DNA of 36,302 nt from Cyanobacteriota bacterium (GCA_041170505.1 JBEAYS010000015.1:1-36302); one strand, 5' to 3'; shown: positions 9,413 to 28,417, counted from the stretch's first letter. Notes: a model not told the origin generated them from the letters alone. Translations and numbers: made by a program.

Positions 9413-10924
9413 TTGCCCTTCAAATCTACTAATTTTTTATTACTATTCCTTGCCTTGTTAATTATTAGCGAGGCCCAAGTTAATGCTGAGCAATCAGAGC
9501 GTTTACAATCCCTACTCGAAAAAGCTCGTCAAAGAAAAGCAACACAAACAGAGGGAAAAGTTAATAGTACTAAGTCTTTAGAAGATTCAACGAGGGAGCT
9601 TCCTAGTCAAACTCCCACTACTCCGACTCGGGATCTGGGCTATCAAAGCACTAAAGTTTTAAGTACCGTCGATAAGACCTCAGTTTCAAAAGATGTTCAG
9701 GCTACAGTCCAAACTCCTGCTAAGCCCCCTGAAACTAGCTTGCCAAGTGCTTCACGTCCCCAAGCACCAACGAGCACGTCATCTAAACCAACTGCTGTCG
9801 TTAACCAAACTATCAAAGTTTCTCAACCACCAGTAGCTAGTAATATTTCAAATTCAAAATCTAGTTCGGTAAGTTCCAAAGTGAACGTGAAACCTAATGT
9901 TAGTACGGCTTTTAGCGCACCTAAAAATCCTTATTTGGAGTCGAGCTTATCTAAGCCTGATCCTAAGGCTGTAAAAAATACTGTGGCCGCTAATCCTACT
10001 CCAAAACCCAAAACATCTCTCCAAACTAAACGTGAAGAAAATCAAGCAAGGAAATCCACTCCCTATATTCAACGCGATGACAAGATTAAAGACGACTTTA
10101 TTACAAGTACAAGCGTCAATATTAAACAAGAAAACAAAAAGAAATCAGATGTTAAACCTACTGAGAAAAAAGATAAACAAGAATATATCAAGACGCCTAA
10201 ACTAGGATATGAAGATCAATTAGTAAAAAAACCTGATAATAAATCCAAGACTCCAAGCTTACCGGTTCTTGATTTGAGTAATTTTGATACAAGACCCAAA
10301 GGAGCTTACATCAGTACGGATATGGATGGTATTGGTGTTGCAGAAGATTCAAAAAAACAAGATGAAGAGCTCTTGACTATGTTGCAAGCCTACAAAGAAA
10401 CGGTCCGCAATGAGATAAAAGGGAATTCCAGAGAGGTTTTTACTTCTTCTAGCGTTATTGGTATAGAAGTTCCTAAACCAGCTGATACTTTGACTAATAA
10501 TAATGGAAAAAATCCAGAAAATTCGGCAAGTGAAAATGACTATTTATTGGTTCTTAAAAAGAGTCTCAAATCACTAGAAGAAGATTCATGGGCTCAAGTA
10601 AAACAAAATATGGGAGAGTCTCTTGATTATTTTGCTCGAGAAAAATCTCTTCATCCTGATGATTCTAATTTAGATCTTTATCATCGGGTGATAATGGGAT
10701 TTTCAAGGTTTGCTGAAGGTGGTCTTGAGCTTGATGAGGGTGATTTTGCGGATTTTGAAGAAGCCGAGGCTCTGTATTTGGATTGTTTAGATATTTTGGA
10801 AGATGCAAAATCTCGCATAAAAAAAGATGATGCAGTGAGTAATAGTGTAAAAAATATAATTAATTCAGTAATCAAATACACTGATGAAGAACTTGAATAT
10901 ATTGAACAAATGATAGGTTTATAA
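9413..10924 (+). CDS. Secreted protein with a long Ser/Thr/Pro/Lys-rich low-complexity region and an acidic C-terminal domain
   Basis: The start is TTG. The N-terminus is signal-like (FLLLFLALLIISEAQVNA|EQ). About 300 aa are S/T/P/K-rich, followed by an acidic helical C-terminus. I recognise no family. Confidence 0.6.
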   Translation: MPFKSTNFLLLFLALLIISEAQVNAEQSERLQSLLEKARQRKATQTEGKVNSTKSLEDSTRELPSQTPTTPTRDLGYQSTKVLSTVDKTSVSKDVQATVQTPAKPPETSLPSASRPQAPTSTSSKPTAVVNQTIKVSQPPVASNISNSKSSSVSSKVNVKPNVSTAFSAPKNPYLESSLSKPDPKAVKNTVAANPTPKPKTSLQTKREENQARKSTPYIQRDDKIKDDFITSTSVNIKQENKKKSDVKPTEKKDKQEYIKTPKLGYEDQLVKKPDNKSKTPSLPVLDLSNFDTRPKGAYISTDMDGIGVAEDSKKQDEELLTMLQAYKETVRNEIKGNSREVFTSSSVIGIEVPKPADTLTNNNGKNPENSASENDYLLVLKKSLKSLEEDSWAQVKQNMGESLDYFAREKSLHPDDSNLDLYHRVIMGFSRFAEGGLELDEGDFADFEEAEALYLDCLDILEDAKSRIKKDDAVSNSVKNIINSVIKYTDEELEYIEQMIGL

Positions 10925-10943: not shown

Positions 10944-11540
10944 ATGAGCATTTCACGTAAATCACACCAAGAGCGTAAAAGTAAAGAGACTTCTATTGAA
11001 GTGGGTATTAACCTAGATGGCTCGGCCCAAGGGGATATTAGCACTGGAGTTCATTTTTTTGATCATATGCTCGATCAGCTCAAGCGCTACGCATTTATTG
11101 ATCTAGATGTCAAAGCTCAAGGAGACCACCATATCGACGATCATCATACCGTGGAAGATACAGGAATAGTTCTTGGTAAGGCTATTAGAGAGGCTCTTGG
11201 CGAGCGCAAAGGTATAAGACGTTATGCATCAGCCCGTGTTGTAATGGATGAAGCTCTTGTGAGCTGTGATATTGATCTGGGCTCTAGAGCCTATTTGGTT
11301 TATAACGTTAGTGTCGACAAAGAGCGCATTAATACTTTTGAGACTGAGCTCTGTGTGGAGTTTTGGCGCGCTTTAGTAAATAATGCTTGCATGACAGTAC
11401 ATTTTCATAAAATTTCTGGTGTAAATTCACACCACATTATAGAAGCTAGTTTTAAAGCCTTCGCCCTTGCCTTCGATAAAGCAAAATCCATCGATCCCCG
11501 TATTGAGGGAGTAATACACAGCACAAAAGGTCTCATTTAA
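10944..11540 (+). CDS. hisB: Imidazoleglycerol-phosphate dehydratase
   Basis: The ETSIEVGINLDG, DHHIDDHHTVEDTGIVLG and SHHIIEASFKAFA motifs are present, and the length (198 aa) is typical. Confidence 0.95.
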   Translation: MSISRKSHQERKSKETSIEVGINLDGSAQGDISTGVHFFDHMLDQLKRYAFIDLDVKAQGDHHIDDHHTVEDTGIVLGKAIREALGERKGIRRYASARVVMDEALVSCDIDLGSRAYLVYNVSVDKERINTFETELCVEFWRALVNNACMTVHFHKISGVNSHHIIEASFKAFALAFDKAKSIDPRIEGVIHSTKGLI

Positions 11541-11553
11541 ATAACTGATTTTT

Positions 11554-11581
11554 TTGCAACTATTATTTTACTTGTTATAAA
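11554..11581 (+). promoter_or_regulatory. Candidate sigma70-type promoter upstream of the precursor peptide gene
   Basis: TTGCAA (11554-11559) and TATAAA (11576-11581) are separated by a 16-nt spacer. AAGGAG at 11612-11617 precedes the ATG at 11630. Confidence 0.25.
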
Positions 11582-11629
11582 ATAATCTTCGAGGGGTTGA
11601 ATAAATAAAGTAAGGAGAAACTGAAAAAA

Positions 11630-11896
11630 ATGAAAAAAACAATCAAACTTTCAAAAAAATTATTAGGGGCCGCGCTTGCTCTTGGTTTAGGAACCACGTT
11701 AGTGGCCAACGCTATGTCTACCCCGCAACCAGCAAGTGGTACTGATGCGATGCTAACCATTACTGAAATGCCGACTCATCCTACTTTACTAAGCAATGAC
11801 GATCACGAATGTGGTGAAAGTCAATGTGGTGAAGACGGTGGTGACGGCGAAGGCGGCGGTGATGAGCATGACGAAATGCTAACACCAGCTCAATAG
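11630..11896 (+). CDS. Putative RiPP precursor: Sec-signal peptide plus an acidic two-Cys (CGE-CGE) C-terminal core
   Basis: The ORF encodes 88 aa, with an AAGGAG SD upstream. The signal peptide is MKKTIKLSKKLLGAALALGLGTTLVANA|M. The tail is DDHECGESQCGEDGGDGEGGGDEHDE. It lies immediately upstream of a DUF692/DUF2063 gene pair. Confidence 0.65.
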   Translation: MKKTIKLSKKLLGAALALGLGTTLVANAMSTPQPASGTDAMLTITEMPTHPTLLSNDDHECGESQCGEDGGDGEGGGDEHDEMLTPAQ

Positions 11897-11917
11897 CTAA
11901 CTGTAATTTTTATTTCA

Positions 11918-11951
11918 TCAAGCCCGGAGCCTGTCTTTGGGCTTTTTTTTG
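11918..11951 (+). terminator. Rho-independent terminator/attenuator hairpin between the precursor and the MNIO gene
   Basis: AAGCCC (11920-11925) pairs with GGGCTT (11939-11944) and is followed by a run of 8 T ending at 11950. Confidence 0.55.
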
Positions 11952-11972
11952 GGATTATAATAAATACTAAAG

Positions 11973-12839
11973 GTGTTCAAAAAATCACATTTCAAAAATT
12001 ACGGACTAGGACTGGGCTTAAGAAAAGACCTCCGAAAGAACATCCTAGAACTTGGTTCTGGACTAATAAATTGGCTTGAAATAGTACCCGAAAACTATAT
12101 CTATCGCGGCGGAATTAACCAAAAAAACTTTCAGCAAGTTTTATCTTCTAAAATTCCTTTGATTCCTCATGGAGTTAACCTAAGTATCGGAACCGCTCCA
12201 GATGAGGGTCACAAGGTCGCTTATGATAAATATCTTCTTGAAGGCTTAAAAGATCTTTTTAGCCAAATCAAACCACCCTGGTTCTCAGACCATATATCCT
12301 GCACGAGAATAAATTCTATTTATCTCCAAGATCTAATCCCCGTACCACGCACTTTTGAAGCTGTTGAGATCATCGCAAACAATATAAAATTTTTGCAAGA
12401 TTATTTTCAATTACCATTTTTAATCGAAAACCCAAGCTATTACAGCGATCTAATAGAGCCTGAATTAAATGAAGTAGAGTTTATAAACAAGATTCTCAAA
12501 AGGTCTGATTGCGGGCTTTTGCTGGATGTAAATAATGTTTTTGTAAATGCTGTTAATCATGGCTATGATGCTCTGCGCTTTATTGATAGCCTTGATCTAG
12601 AGCGCGTTGTTCAAGTCCATATCGCTGGACATCTTGAAAATTACAAATGCTGGATAAACAACAAGGTTTTAGGGATTCTTGATACCCACGGACATCCCAT
12701 CAGAAAAGAAGTCTATGATTTACTTGCTTACGTAGCTAGTAAAACAGAAATAAAAGCGGTGCTCCTTGAGCGCGATTCAAACTTTGGGGATTTTGAAGCG
12801 ATAGTAGAAGAGTTAAGAACAATAGAGCTAATCTTATGA
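11973..12839 (+). CDS. DUF692 family / multinuclear non-heme iron oxidative enzyme (MNIO; MbnB/TglH/BufB-like)
   Basis: Conserved DUF692-type motifs are seen: GLGLGLR, HGVNLSIG, WFSDHIS, LIENPSYY, LLDVNNVFVNAVNHG, VHIAGH, LDTHGHP, LLERD. The start is GTG and is uncertain. Confidence 0.8.
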   Translation: MFKKSHFKNYGLGLGLRKDLRKNILELGSGLINWLEIVPENYIYRGGINQKNFQQVLSSKIPLIPHGVNLSIGTAPDEGHKVAYDKYLLEGLKDLFSQIKPPWFSDHISCTRINSIYLQDLIPVPRTFEAVEIIANNIKFLQDYFQLPFLIENPSYYSDLIEPELNEVEFINKILKRSDCGLLLDVNNVFVNAVNHGYDALRFIDSLDLERVVQVHIAGHLENYKCWINNKVLGILDTHGHPIRKEVYDLLAYVASKTEIKAVLLERDSNFGDFEAIVEELRTIELIL

Positions 12840-13582
12840 GCAAGTTATACCAAGTTCAACAAGAAATTTTAAATTATCTTTTAAATCGATCGACGGATTT
12901 TAAACTTTTGAATAAAGATTCTTGCGACGAGCTAGATATTTACAAAAGCTTAATTCTAAATAGCGCTGAAAAGTTCTTAGCAAGCGGGTTTCAGCATAGT
13001 TACACCTTACTAAAAAGCAAATGGCGCGAGATTATAAAATTGTATCTAGAAAATTTCCCTTCTCAATCACCAATTTATTTTATGATAGGTAAAAATTTTC
13101 CAGAATTCATAAAATCAGACCTATTTCAAAAAAAATTTTCTTATCCTGATTTTCTTGGTGAGTTAATTGAATTTGAATGGACTAAAATAGAACTTTTTAA
13201 CTCTGATGAAGATCAAAAAAATAAATCTAGTATCCTAAATCCTGTTTATAAAATTTTGAAATTTAATTACCCTATCACCCAAATAATTGCTTATCTAGCA
13301 GATGAAGATATTAGCCTTGAAGATAAAATTACAACAGAAATAGAAACTGATAGCGAAAATTTGTTTGTTTATAGAGATACCGAAAGCTTACAAATCAAAA
13401 CCTTTATGCTATCAGACAGCGTAATAGAGGTCCTAAAATATTTAGAACAAGGATTAAGCCCAGAGCAAATCACCGACTTATTATGTAATACAGAAAACTC
13501 GGGTCAAATTTCTCAAATCAAACAAGAACTTTTTTATTTATTAGAAAATTTGAAAAAACTAAATATCTTGATAAAATATTAA
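12836..13582 (+). CDS. DUF2063-like MNIO partner protein (BufC/HvfC-like), tentative
   Basis: It is translationally coupled to the MNIO gene through an ATGA overlap (12836-12839). Its size (248 aa), position and N-terminal LYQVQQEILNYLL pattern fit DUF2063 partners, but the sequence evidence is weaker than for DUF692. Confidence 0.55.
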   Translation: MSKLYQVQQEILNYLLNRSTDFKLLNKDSCDELDIYKSLILNSAEKFLASGFQHSYTLLKSKWREIIKLYLENFPSQSPIYFMIGKNFPEFIKSDLFQKKFSYPDFLGELIEFEWTKIELFNSDEDQKNKSSILNPVYKILKFNYPITQIIAYLADEDISLEDKITTEIETDSENLFVYRDTESLQIKTFMLSDSVIEVLKYLEQGLSPEQITDLLCNTENSGQISQIKQELFYLLENLKKLNILIKY

Positions 13583-13610: not shown

Positions 13611-15266
13611 ATGAATTTAGAAATTAGCAATAAAGAAAATTCTTCTAATACCAATTTGGTGGAATTTAACTTGCAGACAAAAATTAATTTTGAGCTAGAT
13701 AAATCTGCGGATAATAATTTTTATGGAATAAATTATTTATCTTATCCTGGCGTGGATAAGATAAATAATGATTGCACCAGATATCTAGAAAAAGATCTTG
13801 AAATTATTTTTGACATTGGGCAAGCCTTGCCGCAACTTAGTTTTGATTATCATAATTTATTTAATGACAACCAAACTAGTTTTAGTCAAACCCAGCAATC
13901 AAGCGGTATTCCAGCTAATTCATTTGGTAGTCTTTTGACTCATAGTTATGCTGGACAAAAAATTCTTGATAGCTTTTCTATCGCTTATATAGAAGCAAGA
14001 GCGATGAAAGAAGCTCTTCCAAAAGATTATCAAATTGATCATTTTATTATTCCTGAAGGTATTTGCCACCTTGATGTTTTAGATGATGCAATTAGAGCAT
14101 TTGGCTTTTGCAAAAACGAAATCGTTACCATGCTCATCCCAGAAAACGCCATAAAAGCATTTCGCAGAACCAGATTTAGTGGCTGGCAAATGGTAGAAAC
14201 CGCATCCAGGGAAGCTAGTATCGGCAAACTTATTCTTAAGCAACCGACAGGCACTTGTGATGAAATTACTCTTACCGAAACTGAGATTATCAATCTTGAT
14301 TCTCCTATCTATAAAGTCAAAATCGGCGAAAGATGGGTTTTAGTGGCGACACAAAAAAATGATTTTATTAACATCAATAAAACTATAAAACTTAAAATCA
14401 ATAATTCTGTCATTAGTAGTCTTAGGACGAATAACACTATCGAGCACGGCTCAGCCAAACAAGAAAGAACGGTAGAAGCCTCTCCTGGACAAGCAATCAG
14501 AGCGATTTTTGCCTTGCTGGGCAATAATTTTGATTTAGTGCCAGAAGCTCTCTTGAATTTTGAAGGCGGCTCTTGGTCATCGATCGCAACAGAAAAAACA
14601 AGTAGCGGAAGATACTGCGGCACTAATAGCATGAATGAAGTGATCAAGCATAAATGGTATCAGCATCCTGAAGTTGCTATTCCTTGGAACTACTTGGGAT
14701 TTGATTATCAGACAGATTCATCAGCTTTACCGTCAGATACTTATACTCTTAGCTTCAAAAACGCACCAGGAGTGAATCTCATCGAATGTCCGCAATACTG
14801 GAAAAAAATCCAGCAAGAATTATTGGTTTTTGTAAGCAGATTTATTTATAGAGAATTTTCTGCAATTGCAAGTAAAAAATTCTTACTCAGCACAAAAGAT
14901 CTCATACATATCACCACTAAATACCTTGCTGAACTCATCAAATCTGATTTTGATATTAAAAGCGATGAGTTCAAGTCAAGAATCGCTGAAATGAGCTGTC
15001 CAAGTGACCTTAAAGAGTTCCTAAAAATGATCGGTCACCTGCACTTAATGAACTCCTCAAAATCTGATTTTTATAGCTCCAAAAAACATCCTCAGTCGCT
15101 AGCTAGACTCAAAAACCTTTTTGAAATAGAAAAATCACTCGATAAACTCTGCCCTGCTAGCGCTAGCAGTTTTAAAACCAGAGTCAGAGCTATACTTGCC
15201 AAGGACCCTGTCACTGAGGGGGTTACGTTGTTAGAGTTGTTTAAGAATTTGCAGAATAACCCTTAA
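13611..15266 (+). CDS. Hypothetical cytoplasmic protein, 551 aa, no recognisable domain
   Basis: This is a long ORF in AT-rich DNA, on the same strand as the DUF2063-like gene and 28 nt downstream of it. It has no signal peptide, no TM segment and no motif I recognise. Confidence 0.7.
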   Translation: MNLEISNKENSSNTNLVEFNLQTKINFELDKSADNNFYGINYLSYPGVDKINNDCTRYLEKDLEIIFDIGQALPQLSFDYHNLFNDNQTSFSQTQQSSGIPANSFGSLLTHSYAGQKILDSFSIAYIEARAMKEALPKDYQIDHFIIPEGICHLDVLDDAIRAFGFCKNEIVTMLIPENAIKAFRRTRFSGWQMVETASREASIGKLILKQPTGTCDEITLTETEIINLDSPIYKVKIGERWVLVATQKNDFININKTIKLKINNSVISSLRTNNTIEHGSAKQERTVEASPGQAIRAIFALLGNNFDLVPEALLNFEGGSWSSIATEKTSSGRYCGTNSMNEVIKHKWYQHPEVAIPWNYLGFDYQTDSSALPSDTYTLSFKNAPGVNLIECPQYWKKIQQELLVFVSRFIYREFSAIASKKFLLSTKDLIHITTKYLAELIKSDFDIKSDEFKSRIAEMSCPSDLKEFLKMIGHLHLMNSSKSDFYSSKKHPQSLARLKNLFEIEKSLDKLCPASASSFKTRVRAILAKDPVTEGVTLLELFKNLQNNP

Positions 15267-26701: not shown

Positions 26702-28417
26702 TTGTCATCTAAGGTAAATTTTTTAGGATTAAATAGTAATTTTGATTCAGCTAGTCTGGTGAATCAACTCATTGATCTTGAGACGCAAACCAAAATTAAT
26801 CCTCTACAAACTAAAAAAACTTCTCTTCAAAGAGAAAGATCTTCTCTAGATACTGTTGCAACCAATGTTAGAGACATCAAAACAGCTTTGTCATATAACT
26901 CTATAAAAGATGGTTCAAAAGCTCTTGCTCCAAAAAAAGTAAGCACTAATGATAGTACAAAAGAGTTTATTAGCGTTACTGCCACAGATTCAGCTGTTGC
27001 ACAAAGCTTCCAAGTTTATGTAGATAAACTAGCTACAAATACTATTCGTAAGTCTAGTCAAGTTATCAAAAATGATCTTACAAACGTTTCACCGACTGCT
27101 TCTGCTAATTTTAAAGGAGGAGTTACCTTATCTGATGGAACTGTTACTATTAACGGCGAAACCAAGACCTTCGCCTCCACGGCAGATGATATCGCTGAAA
27201 TAGAAACTTTTTTAAATAGTTTTACTGGTGTTACTGGGACTTTTAATACCACATCTGGAAAATTTGATCTTACAGGAATCACTTCTCTGGGCTCTGCTGG
27301 AGACACTAGTAACATGATTTCTGCTCTAGGCTTAAATAATGCTCAAATAACAGCAGGCAATGTTACAGGTATCCAAAATCTTGAAGCTGTAAAAGCCAAT
27401 GCTGTATTGACTTCTATCGGTATAACGGGCACTAAGATTACTATCAATGGAGCGGATATAAATTATGCACCTGCTACAGATACAATTCAATCACTTGTTA
27501 CAAAAATTAATAACTCCTCTGGTGCAAAAGTAAGTGCTTCATACGATGCAATTAATGGTGAGCTGATAATGACAAATAAATCGACAGGAGCTTTATCAAT
27601 TACAGTAAGTTCTAATGGAAATATCAATCCTCTAAATTTAAATAATGTTGGCAGTGAAACACTTGGCAATAATGCAGAGTTTAGAATTTCTACCTTAAAT
27701 GGAGGAGCTACTCTTGTTAGTAATAATAATTCAATATCCGATATTATTAATGGGGTGACAATTAATTTGACTAAGACTAACTCAAACCCAATTACAGTCA
27801 ATATTTCAGAGGATTCATCTGGCTATAGAACATCGATAGATGAGATTATTAGAAATATAAATAAGTTAAATACTTTTCTAAAAAATATTGATACAACTTT
27901 TTCCAGAAATTTTTCTTCACGAATGAGAAATATTGTTAGTTCAGTTGCTGGCACTAATGGAGTTGATACTTATACTTCACTTATTGATATTGGCTTGAAA
28001 AGCAATTTAGATGCTGATGGAAAGTTTACTGGTTATAGTCTCGATTCAACTCTTTTTAATAAGGCTTTTGCCTCTGCACCAGATGAACTTAATAAAATTC
28101 TTTGGGGTAATTCTAGTGATCCAAAAAGTATTTTTTCTTCTCTCTCAAACGGGAACAAGGGGATTCTTGTCCAGTTGCAGGAACTCATGGATAGTTATAT
28201 AGATCCAAGTGTTCCTGCAAATGGTTTAATTAATCAAATTCAAGAAACATTAAGTTCTCAAATAAAATCTGTTGATTCCCGAATTGAAAAAACTCAAGAT
28301 AGCATTGACAACTTGGAACAGAGAATGAGGAGGCAGTTCTCTCAATTAGATCTTATAACCTCTCAATATCAGCAACAGCAAAGTGCTCTCAATGGTCTAA
28401 TGGCTCAATTAGGATAA
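26702..28417 (+). CDS. fliD: Flagellar filament capping protein (hook-associated protein 2)
   Basis: The start is TTG, 5 nt after AAGGAG. The N-terminus GLNSNFDSASLVNQLIDLETQTKINPLQTKKTSLQ and the C-terminus RMRRQFSQLDLITSQYQQQQSAL match the conserved FliD termini. Confidence 0.85.
   Translation: MSSKVNFLGLNSNFDSASLVNQLIDLETQTKINPLQTKKTSLQRERSSLDTVATNVRDIKTALSYNSIKDGSKALAPKKVSTNDSTKEFISVTATDSAVAQSFQVYVDKLATNTIRKSSQVIKNDLTNVSPTASANFKGGVTLSDGTVTINGETKTFASTADDIAEIETFLNSFTGVTGTFNTTSGKFDLTGITSLGSAGDTSNMISALGLNNAQITAGNVTGIQNLEAVKANAVLTSIGITGTKITINGADINYAPATDTIQSLVTKINNSSGAKVSASYDAINGELIMTNKSTGALSITVSSNGNINPLNLNNVGSETLGNNAEFRISTLNGGATLVSNNNSISDIINGVTINLTKTNSNPITVNISEDSSGYRTSIDEIIRNINKLNTFLKNIDTTFSRNFSSRMRNIVSSVAGTNGVDTYTSLIDIGLKSNLDADGKFTGYSLDSTLFNKAFASAPDELNKILWGNSSDPKSIFSSLSNGNKGILVQLQELMDSYIDPSVPANGLINQIQETLSSQIKSVDSRIEKTQDSIDNLEQRMRRQFSQLDLITSQYQQQQSALNGLMAQLG

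Follow-up and report, generated by a model that had tools for sequence, protein, structure and literature searches.

The window, by which we mean the whole stretch of 36,302 nucleotides of Cyanobacteriota DNA that was analysed, contains on its plus strand a short gene for a putative exported peptide, followed by genes for an MNIO (DUF692) enzyme, a DUF2063/HvfC-like partner and a conserved protein of 551 amino acids. The hisB gene is located upstream of the peptide gene, and the rest of the window consists of housekeeping genes. Judging from the homologues of the MNIO, the lineage is Caenarcaniphilales/Melainabacteria (Vampirovibrionia), that is, non-photosynthetic Cyanobacteriota. An earlier note had read the short gene as a RiPP precursor with a Sec signal encoded beside an MNIO and a DUF2063-like partner, and the Pfam matches of the two larger proteins (PF05114 and PF09836) and the conservation of the ORF agree with that description. 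The window also encodes the flagellar cap protein FliD (PF07195/PF02465) at 26702-28417 (+), which fits with motility in this member of the Melainabacteria.

Layout of the precursor gene and its neighbourhood

The precursor ORF, taken from the ORF list and the window sequence, is located at 11630-11896 (+) and comprises 88 codons for 88 amino acids, encoding, in order, MKKTIKLSKKLLGAALALGLGTTLVANA, MSTPQPASGTDAMLTITEMPTHPTLLSNDD and HECGESQCGEDGGDGEGGGDEHDEMLTPAQ. Retranslation gave exactly the ORF, signal peptide, linker and pair of cysteines within HECGESQCGE that had been described previously. Using inspection and the -3/-1 rule, we assigned residues 1-28 (MKKTIKLSKKLLGAALALGLGTTLVANA; 11630-11713, +) to a Sec-type signal peptide, the n-region of which is rich in Lys and the hydrophobic core of which spans 15 residues, with A-N-A at positions -3 to -1; in an alignment of 18 orthologues, A26 was invariant and A28 was at least 90% conserved. 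The linker or follower region (residues 29-58; 11714-11803, +) is conserved in the syntenic orthologues and in 31 relatives, and contains the motif (F/L)-x-(I/M)-x-E-(hydrophobic)-(P/S)...LL(S/I)N-D-D. The core, H59-E-C61-G-E-S-Q-C66-G-E68 (HECGESQCGE; 11804-11833, +), holds the only two cysteines of the precursor, C61 (nt 11810-11812) and C66 (nt 11825-11827), and its two Cys-Gly sites are five residues apart, with the period-5 spacing kept. The last segment (11834-11896, +) encodes a Gly/Asp/Glu/His tail (residues 69-88), acidic and free of Lys and Arg by composition, and the stop codon. The predicted mature peptide is likewise without Lys or Arg and has a net charge of -14. The Pfam scan gave no match for the precursor, including none to DUF2282, nor did the tail match an EF-hand or any other Pfam domain.

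The nonamer TGTGGTGAA, an exact repeat to which the earlier note had drawn attention, was found at the two positions given there, 11810-11818 and 11825-11833 (+), and nowhere else in the 36.3-kb window. We rejected it as a signal at the DNA level. Given the codon usage of the window, two Cys-Gly-Glu tripeptides would be coded identically by chance with a probability of about 0.085, and the synonymous codons of the relatives differ, the same residues being coded as TGCGGTGAA twice in L081 and as TGTGGTGAG and TGCGGAGAA in L082. Since the relatives spell the CGE sites with other codons, the repeat exists at the peptide level, and on this codon comparison the nonamer is a mere by-product of coding CGE twice.

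A Shine-Dalgarno region, TAAGGAGAAA (11611-11620, +), is located 9 nt 5' of the ATG and is kept without change in 7/7 related loci while the remaining intergenic sequence diverges. Further upstream, TTGCAA-18-TAAAAT (11554-11583, +) is a weak candidate for a sigma-70-like promoter, matching at 9 of 12 positions; such sites were no more numerous in the upstream region than in shuffled sequence. Between the precursor and enzyme genes there is an intrinsic terminator or attenuator (11920-11950, +) with a 10-bp stem, a 5-nt loop and a U-run. In an alignment of eight related loci, 100% of the cells in the hairpin pair, three pairs are compensatory and the T-run is invariant. We infer that the hairpin is an attenuating terminator that keeps the precursor transcripts in excess over the enzyme transcripts.

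Right after the U-run, at about 11953-11958 (+) and about 15 nt before the GTG start of the MNIO gene, is a TATAAT that was invariant in 8/8 loci aligned; it could serve as the -10 element for an enzyme transcript with a short leader, or belong to the translation-initiation region. A search for known RNA families in 11300-12200 yielded a sole sub-threshold match that is meaningless (E = 0.93). We also considered a copper-responsive operator upstream of the precursor gene and discarded it; apart from the Shine-Dalgarno sequence, the alignment of the upstream regions shows just one short block, GGGG(C/T)T(G)AAT, and no palindrome could be recognised.

The MNIO gene (11973-12839, +) encodes an HvfB/BufB-like protein of 288 amino acids (PF05114, E = 8e-81). 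Using the NCBIfam models, the scores were 238 bits for BufB (cut-off 310) and 237 bits for HvfB (cut-off 360), both under the equivalog cut-offs, and 44.7 bits for MbnB (TIGR04159, cut-off 325). The nearest solved structure by sequence is 3bww, a DUF692 protein from Haemophilus somnus (E = 8.5e-55), and the common fold is also seen in a match to the MbnB structure 7dz9 (E = 5e-11). The putative iron ligands (His/Asp/Glu/Asn) do not vary among 24 homologues; they were assigned from this invariance, from their match to the aligned residues of 3bww and from the ligand set of MNIO enzymes. The partner gene (12836-13582, +), the start of which overlaps the MNIO stop by 4 nt, encodes 248 amino acids with a match to PF09836 (46.5 bits, cut-off 27.2) and a score of 84.6 bits against the HvfC model NF050145 (cut-off 142). 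It follows the MNIO gene in related loci too. A search by sequence identified no solved structure for the HvfC-like partner. Neither the MNIO nor the partner has a signal peptide.

The gene for the 551-residue protein (13611-15266, +) starts 28 nt downstream of the HvfC-like gene, and its membership in the cluster is uncertain. The protein has no Pfam or NCBIfam match and only 43 homologues in a collection of 5.8 billion proteins, none of which has a Pfam domain; the two homologues with a named source are cyanobacterial, and many of the 43 are encoded on contigs that equal those of the MNIO hits in length. The gene is syntenic in L001-L005, L009, L010, L015, L018, L037 and L081-L087 and missing from other MNIO loci. 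Its linkage to the cluster may reflect a gene order common to the lineage, as the synteny of hisB and of an upstream gene is just as strong. The AF2 model (pLDDT 80.6) gave a single significant fold match in the PDB, a weak one to the GH57 maltose-forming amylase 4cmr_B (E = 7.7e-4, TM 0.35). A Pfam scan of the ORFs of 110 amino acids or more across the 36-kb window gave no DoxX, and no copper-homeostasis gene was found in the window. The 551-residue protein was considered as a substitute for DoxX and set aside, given that it has no family match, that its fold match is just the weak one to GH57 and that hisB is as syntenic as it is. Another gene without a Pfam match, at 9413-10924 (+), encodes a protein of 503 amino acids in which a signal-like N-terminus and a long low-complexity region rich in Ser, Thr, Pro and Lys precede a C-terminal part that is conserved; its synteny with hisB extends over the whole lineage.

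Relatives of the precursor and the two-Cys clade

To place the precursor among its relatives, we took 80 loci encoding MNIO relatives and read the ORFs upstream of each. Loci with an MNIO 57-62% identical to that of the window have the same gene order, with hisB, the precursor, MNIO, the HvfC-like gene and often the 551-residue protein gene. The precursors encoded in these syntenic loci, from MAGs of Caenarcaniphilales/Melainabacteria, have the same signal peptide and linker, contain 3-12 (E/D)(G/H)KCG units and are 39-55% identical to the window peptide by tblastn; in L002, for example, the peptide reads MKKKINISKKLMGSALALGIVTTLNANAISTPQ...FSISELPS..LLLSNDTDHKCGEGKCGKDHKCG... In the alignment of 18 sequences, C61 and G62 do not vary, conservation is at least 90% for C66 and G67, and the two cysteines of the window peptide fall on KCG units one and two of the EGKCG-repeat precursors. 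The L004 peptide passes the model NF050137 ('KCGExKCG_twice, HvfA family') with 29.3 bits (cut-off 19.5). Against NF050137 and NF050188, the window peptide gave no match with a threshold as loose as E <= 10, and the two-Cys peptide of L084 gave none either. Searching 1.84 billion representatives with a profile built from the window clade retrieved only 31 relatives, nearly all of them small peptides of the signal-linker-KCG type.

The number of cysteines forms a graded series, from four (L086, L087 and P0174) to three (P0173) and two (the window clade), with L086 and L087 carrying HKCGEGKCGEHECGEHECGE (4 Cys) and P0173 carrying HQCGEGKCGEHECGEDSGDD (3 Cys). By sequence, the window peptide appears to sit at the end of this series. 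The codons of the window clade at the positions of Cys 3 and Cys 4 in the sister peptides encode Gly or Ser and are one base from TGT, which suggests that they are decayed repeats. We infer a stepwise loss of repeats from an ancestor with four cysteines, accompanied by acidification.

The survey also recovered other small peptides and loci. In P0198 (85 aa) and P0190 (84 aa), a short core of the EGKCG type precedes a His/Asp-rich tail (...GDHKCGKGKCGSDHDDEEELKDDHDDHGDEDDHGHGH); the two seem to be independent cases, such that acidic or His-containing tails would seem to recur in the EGKCG peptide family. Lipoprotein versions of EGKCG peptides are known (PMC13056109), and the precursors at L013:713-940, L016:3775-4008 and L017:3775-4008, in which a lipoprotein signal (LNAC) is combined with HKCGEDHKCGEGKCGQE, resemble the NedA-type lipidated EGKCG peptides (PMC13056109), here in Caenarcaniphilales. 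A paralogous MNIO locus was found in MAGs of Caenarcaniphilales/Melainabacteria, with an MNIO 51-54% identical to that of the window. The peptide upstream of this MNIO (L020:3778-3996, L021:3769-3996, L022:706-924, L023, L025 and L026) is 72-75 aa long, Glu/Ala/Thr-rich and ends in KSAH, and the only cysteine is that of its lipobox (...VLNAC|NVSK...). Finally, several MAGs labelled 'uncultured Gammaproteobacteria bacterium' (SRP150892 and others; L002-L005, L011, L014, L018, L019, L024 and L027) have the gene order of the Melainabacteria/Caenarcanales MAGs and a hisB 70-77% identical to that of the window, and their taxonomic labels are probably wrong.

Close relatives with an MNIO 71-92% identical to that of the window have an intact ORF of 83-87 aa at the same place. 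Within the two-Cys clade, the frame is intact in L081, L082, L084 and L085, and a database search with the peptide found eight further clusters of the precursor. The pattern C-G-x3-C-G is invariant in 9/9 cluster representatives, each of which has exactly two cysteines. Comparisons of codons 1-68 with four relatives yielded pN/pS ratios of 0.16-0.29 at pS values of 0.47-0.69; the ratios were 0.10-0.21 for the signal peptide, 0.22-0.38 for the linker and 0.06-0.27 for the core. The enzymes of the clade are intact, with identities of 71-93% for the MNIO and 54-88% for the HvfC-like partner. On these comparisons, the precursor ORF is a genuine, conserved gene under purifying selection. Of the features that the earlier note proposed to check, the frame is intact beside homologous enzyme pairs, and both cysteines and the Cys-Gly spacing are kept in 9/9 representatives. 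The count of two cysteines proved to be constant within this small clade only, the orthologues having 3-12 cysteines, and the flanking His, common at position -2 to Cys, is not invariant, as P0172 has I-M-C. In one assembly (L084:5899-6453), the HvfC-like gene was called at only 184 aa, compared with 243-250 aa in most other loci, which may be due to a truncation or frameshift in that assembly.

The clade differs from the other relatives in the residue that precedes the cysteine, which is Glu at 10, Gln at 7 and Met at 1 of the 18 sites and Lys at none of them (0/18), as compared with Lys at 106/141 sites in the other relatives. Gly follows the cysteine at 18/18 sites in the clade and at 136/141 sites in the relatives. 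The acidic, Lys/Arg-free composition of the tails is kept in the clade, while their sequence and length vary. The net charge of the mature peptides is about -14 to -18 in the clade and about -15 to +9 in the relatives (most about -10 to +9), the latter being a crude estimate on the residues after position 30. A search for charge-compensating substitutions specific to the acidic clade found E/D23->N and E/D276->A in the MNIO and E/D117->K in HvfC, along with the opposite changes K155->A and R165->I in HvfC. Since changes in the opposite direction occur and the clade is monophyletic, this result is not interpretable and the idea was dropped.

Predicted modification, function and alternative readings

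The 'Buf_EGKCG/oxazolin' family consists of EGKCG peptides with a Sec signal, encoded beside MNIO, DUF2063 and often DoxX genes, and has about 2,000 members, mostly from Pseudomonadota (PMC12452194); 'captophorins' is a class name for these peptides (PMC12668002). In Haemophilus influenzae, HvfBC modifies all six cysteines in the three AEGKCGEGKCG motifs of HvfA, with a mass shift of -4 Da each, and the modified HvfA binds Cu(I) in keeping with a ratio of one Cu to two modified cysteines (PMC11252979). The heterocycle of the EGKCG peptides was at first assigned as oxazolone/thioamide (PMC11252979) and is now assigned as 5-thiooxazole, both by the oxazolin authors and by an independent group (10.64898/2026.06.05.730506; PMC12668002). 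In vitro, FonBC needs at least two repeats, the cysteine and a small residue after it, and its activity is severely impaired by a Lys-to-Glu exchange before the cysteine (PMC12668002).

We consider it probable that the window precursor belongs to the EGKCG/oxazolin family (HvfA-type, 'captophorin'), as a minimal and derived member, namely a Sec-exported, MNIO-modified metallophore peptide from Caenarcaniphilales. The system is of an already described kind, and the window peptide is an acidic two-Cys variant of it that the family HMMs miss. Points in the sequence data that count against this assignment are the failure to match the family HMMs, the enzyme scores below the equivalog cut-offs, the replacement of Lys before the cysteines and the lack of a DoxX or copper gene in the window. 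The loss of repeats could also be read as decay.

According to this scheme, the precursor gene would be transcribed with its own strong ribosome-binding site, and the terminator hairpin would pass only part of the transcription on to the enzyme genes, so that the peptide would be made in excess over the enzyme. In the cytoplasm, the iron-dependent MNIO and the HvfC-like partner would, by homology, oxidise C61 and C66 by four electrons each to 5-thiooxazoles, with ring closure by the carbonyl of the residue before each cysteine, which is Glu60 or Gln65 here and not the usual Lys. Since Lys-to-Glu impairs FonBC (PMC12668002), modification here would require an enzyme with altered tolerance. Sec export and a cut by signal peptidase I after Ala28 would then release a periplasmic peptide of 60 residues without Lys or Arg and with a net charge of -14. 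By analogy with the one Cu per pair of modified cysteines proposed for oxazolin, the single pair of heterocycles would make up one high-affinity Cu(I) site, with His59 and the Asp/Glu/His tail as possible auxiliary or low-affinity ligands. The two-Cys state would have arisen by loss of repeats in the four-Cys ancestor.

The linker was put forward in the earlier note as the recognition sequence for the partner. Since it is conserved and under purifying selection (pN/pS 0.22-0.38), a role as a recognition element for the HvfC-like partner is plausible; against this, the N-terminal regions of HvfA and FonA are dispensable or tolerant to substitution (PMC11252979; PMC12668002).

The same note likened the two Cys-Gly sites to those modified by MbnBC in methanobactin, with the modified pair forming an N2S2-type metal site. 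On such a reading, each cysteine would be converted to an oxazolone/thioamide pair, giving a methanobactin-type copper site. The first half of this comparison stands, in that the Cys-Gly sites are conserved and presumably modified, and the MNIO has the fold of MbnB (7dz9, E = 5e-11). Oxazolone/thioamide was also the assignment first made for oxazolin (PMC11252979), and a shift of -4 Da and an absorbance at about 302 nm fit both chemistries. However, the MNIO scores only 44.7 bits against MbnB (cut-off 325) as compared with about 238 bits against BufB and HvfB, making HvfA/oxazolin the closest system, and the partner is of the DUF2063/PME-type 1, not MbnC. With the modification of EGKCG peptides reassigned to 5-thiooxazole (10.64898/2026.06.05.730506; PMC12668002), the chemistry suggested in the note is probably wrong, and we regard an MbnBC-like site as very improbable. 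Another reading retains the enzymology and export of the family and changes the function, to a different or mixed metal specificity or to that of a chaperone with one site in place of a copper sponge. The Glu60 carboxylate beside the heterocycle could for instance be used to bind Cu(II), Zn or Ni, and the Asp/Glu/His tail to bind Ca2+, Fe or Mn. The complete replacement, within the clade, of the Lys before the cysteine by Glu, Gln or Met, a mature peptide more acidic than most relatives at a net charge of -14 to -18, a tail that keeps its acidity though not its sequence, and the known fusions of EGKC domains to Ca2+-binding EF-hands (PMC12452194) all point in this direction. Yet the tail matches neither an EF-hand nor any other Pfam domain and evolves fast with indels, as expected of a low-complexity spacer; thiolate and azole donors prefer soft Cu(I), as is the case for every relative characterised, and no metal-specific gene is located nearby. 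Such a change of function therefore seems unlikely to us.

It is also conceivable that the system is decaying, with relaxed selection behind the loss of repeats and of the Lys, in which case the peptide would be unmodified, or non-functional, or no more than a small acidic peptide of the periplasm in which a disulfide joins C61 and C66. The stepwise drop in Cys units (4 -> 3 -> 2), the lack of matches to the family HMMs, the poor acceptance of Glu at position -1 by FonBC (PMC12668002) and the shortening of the HvfC-like gene of L084 to 184 aa would fit with this. We nevertheless hold decay to be quite improbable, since C-G-x3-C-G is invariant in 9/9 clusters at near-saturated synonymous sites, the core pN/pS is 0.06-0.27, the MNIO and partner are intact across the clade with invariant ligand residues, and both the Shine-Dalgarno sequence and the terminator are conserved; two repeats are, moreover, exactly the minimal substrate of FonBC (PMC12668002). 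A doubtful extension of the family assignment, offered here tentatively, is that the Glu/Gln-Cys-Gly clade is a functionally distinct offshoot of the oxazolins, in which the MNIO and HvfC accept an acidic residue before the cysteine and 5-thiooxazoles armed with a carboxylate or amide, together with the poly-acidic tail, shift the metal selectivity or the role away from bulk Cu(I) sequestration. If so, the peptide would be, for example, a single-site periplasmic chaperone or a binder of mixed soft and hard metals in non-photosynthetic cyanobacteria.

With the precursor taken as a derived captophorin, no new type of system is revealed, and the locus would extend the oxazolin/captophorin family into Vampirovibrionia. 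It would mark a natural lower limit of the family, with two cysteines for one predicted metal site, equal to the minimal substrate of FonBC in vitro. The clade would also represent a natural experiment on the co-evolution of enzyme and substrate, in which the Lys before the cysteine, thought to be important for processing, has been replaced by Glu or Gln. Since the EGKCG-based family HMMs miss derived members such as this one, counts of these metallophores from genome mining are underestimates.

Comparison with known systems

The closest likeness is to oxazolin/HvfA of nontypeable Haemophilus influenzae (NF050137/NF050188), which has a Sec signal, an N-terminal region and a C-terminal Cys-Gly repeat of period 5 and the gene of which likewise directly precedes those of an MNIO and a DUF2063/RRE partner; the MNIO of the window is BufB/HvfB-like, with scores under the equivalog cut-offs. 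Unlike HvfA with its six modified cysteines, the window peptide has two, with Glu or Gln in place of Lys before them and an acidic tail free of Lys; it has neither the 17-residue nor the AEGKCGEGKCG super-repeat, there is no DoxX nearby, and the host belongs to Caenarcaniphilales rather than Pseudomonadota. With fontiphorin and gonophorin (FonABC/NgoABC; PMC12668002), the locus shares the MNIO and PME-type-1 logic and a predicted 5-thiooxazole on Cys-Gly dyads. The window peptide contains both the two repeats and the small residue after the cysteine that FonBC needs, whereas its native residue before the cysteine is Glu or Gln, of which Glu is poorly tolerated by FonBC.

The bufferins Buf1 (DUF2282) and Buf2 (PMC11626156) are similar in being Sec-exported, MNIO/DUF2063-modified peptides of the periplasmic copper-buffering type, and the MNIO of the window scores equally against BufB and HvfB; the window precursor differs from them in having no DUF2282, four-Cys pattern, disulfide or folded domain. 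In the earlier note, Sec signals were called uncommon among RiPP precursors and the bufferins named as the known exception, but the oxazolins and the CxxxxC peptides have signal peptides too (PMC12452194). In methanobactin (MbnA/MbnBC), an MNIO also acts on a cysteine that precedes a small residue, and one copper site is made up of two heterocycles, but the MbnB subfamily, MbnC, a leader without a Sec signal, the oxazolone/thioamide chemistry and dedicated export and uptake genes are features of that system that were not seen here. The 'CxxxxC' precursors (76 proteins; PMC12452194) share with the window peptide a signal peptide, the C-x4-C spacing and an adjoining MNIO and DUF2063 protein. That family is reported only from Pseudomonadati and has Lactamase_B_2 in 54% of its clusters, whereas the leader of the window peptide is homologous to that of the EGKCG-type precursors.
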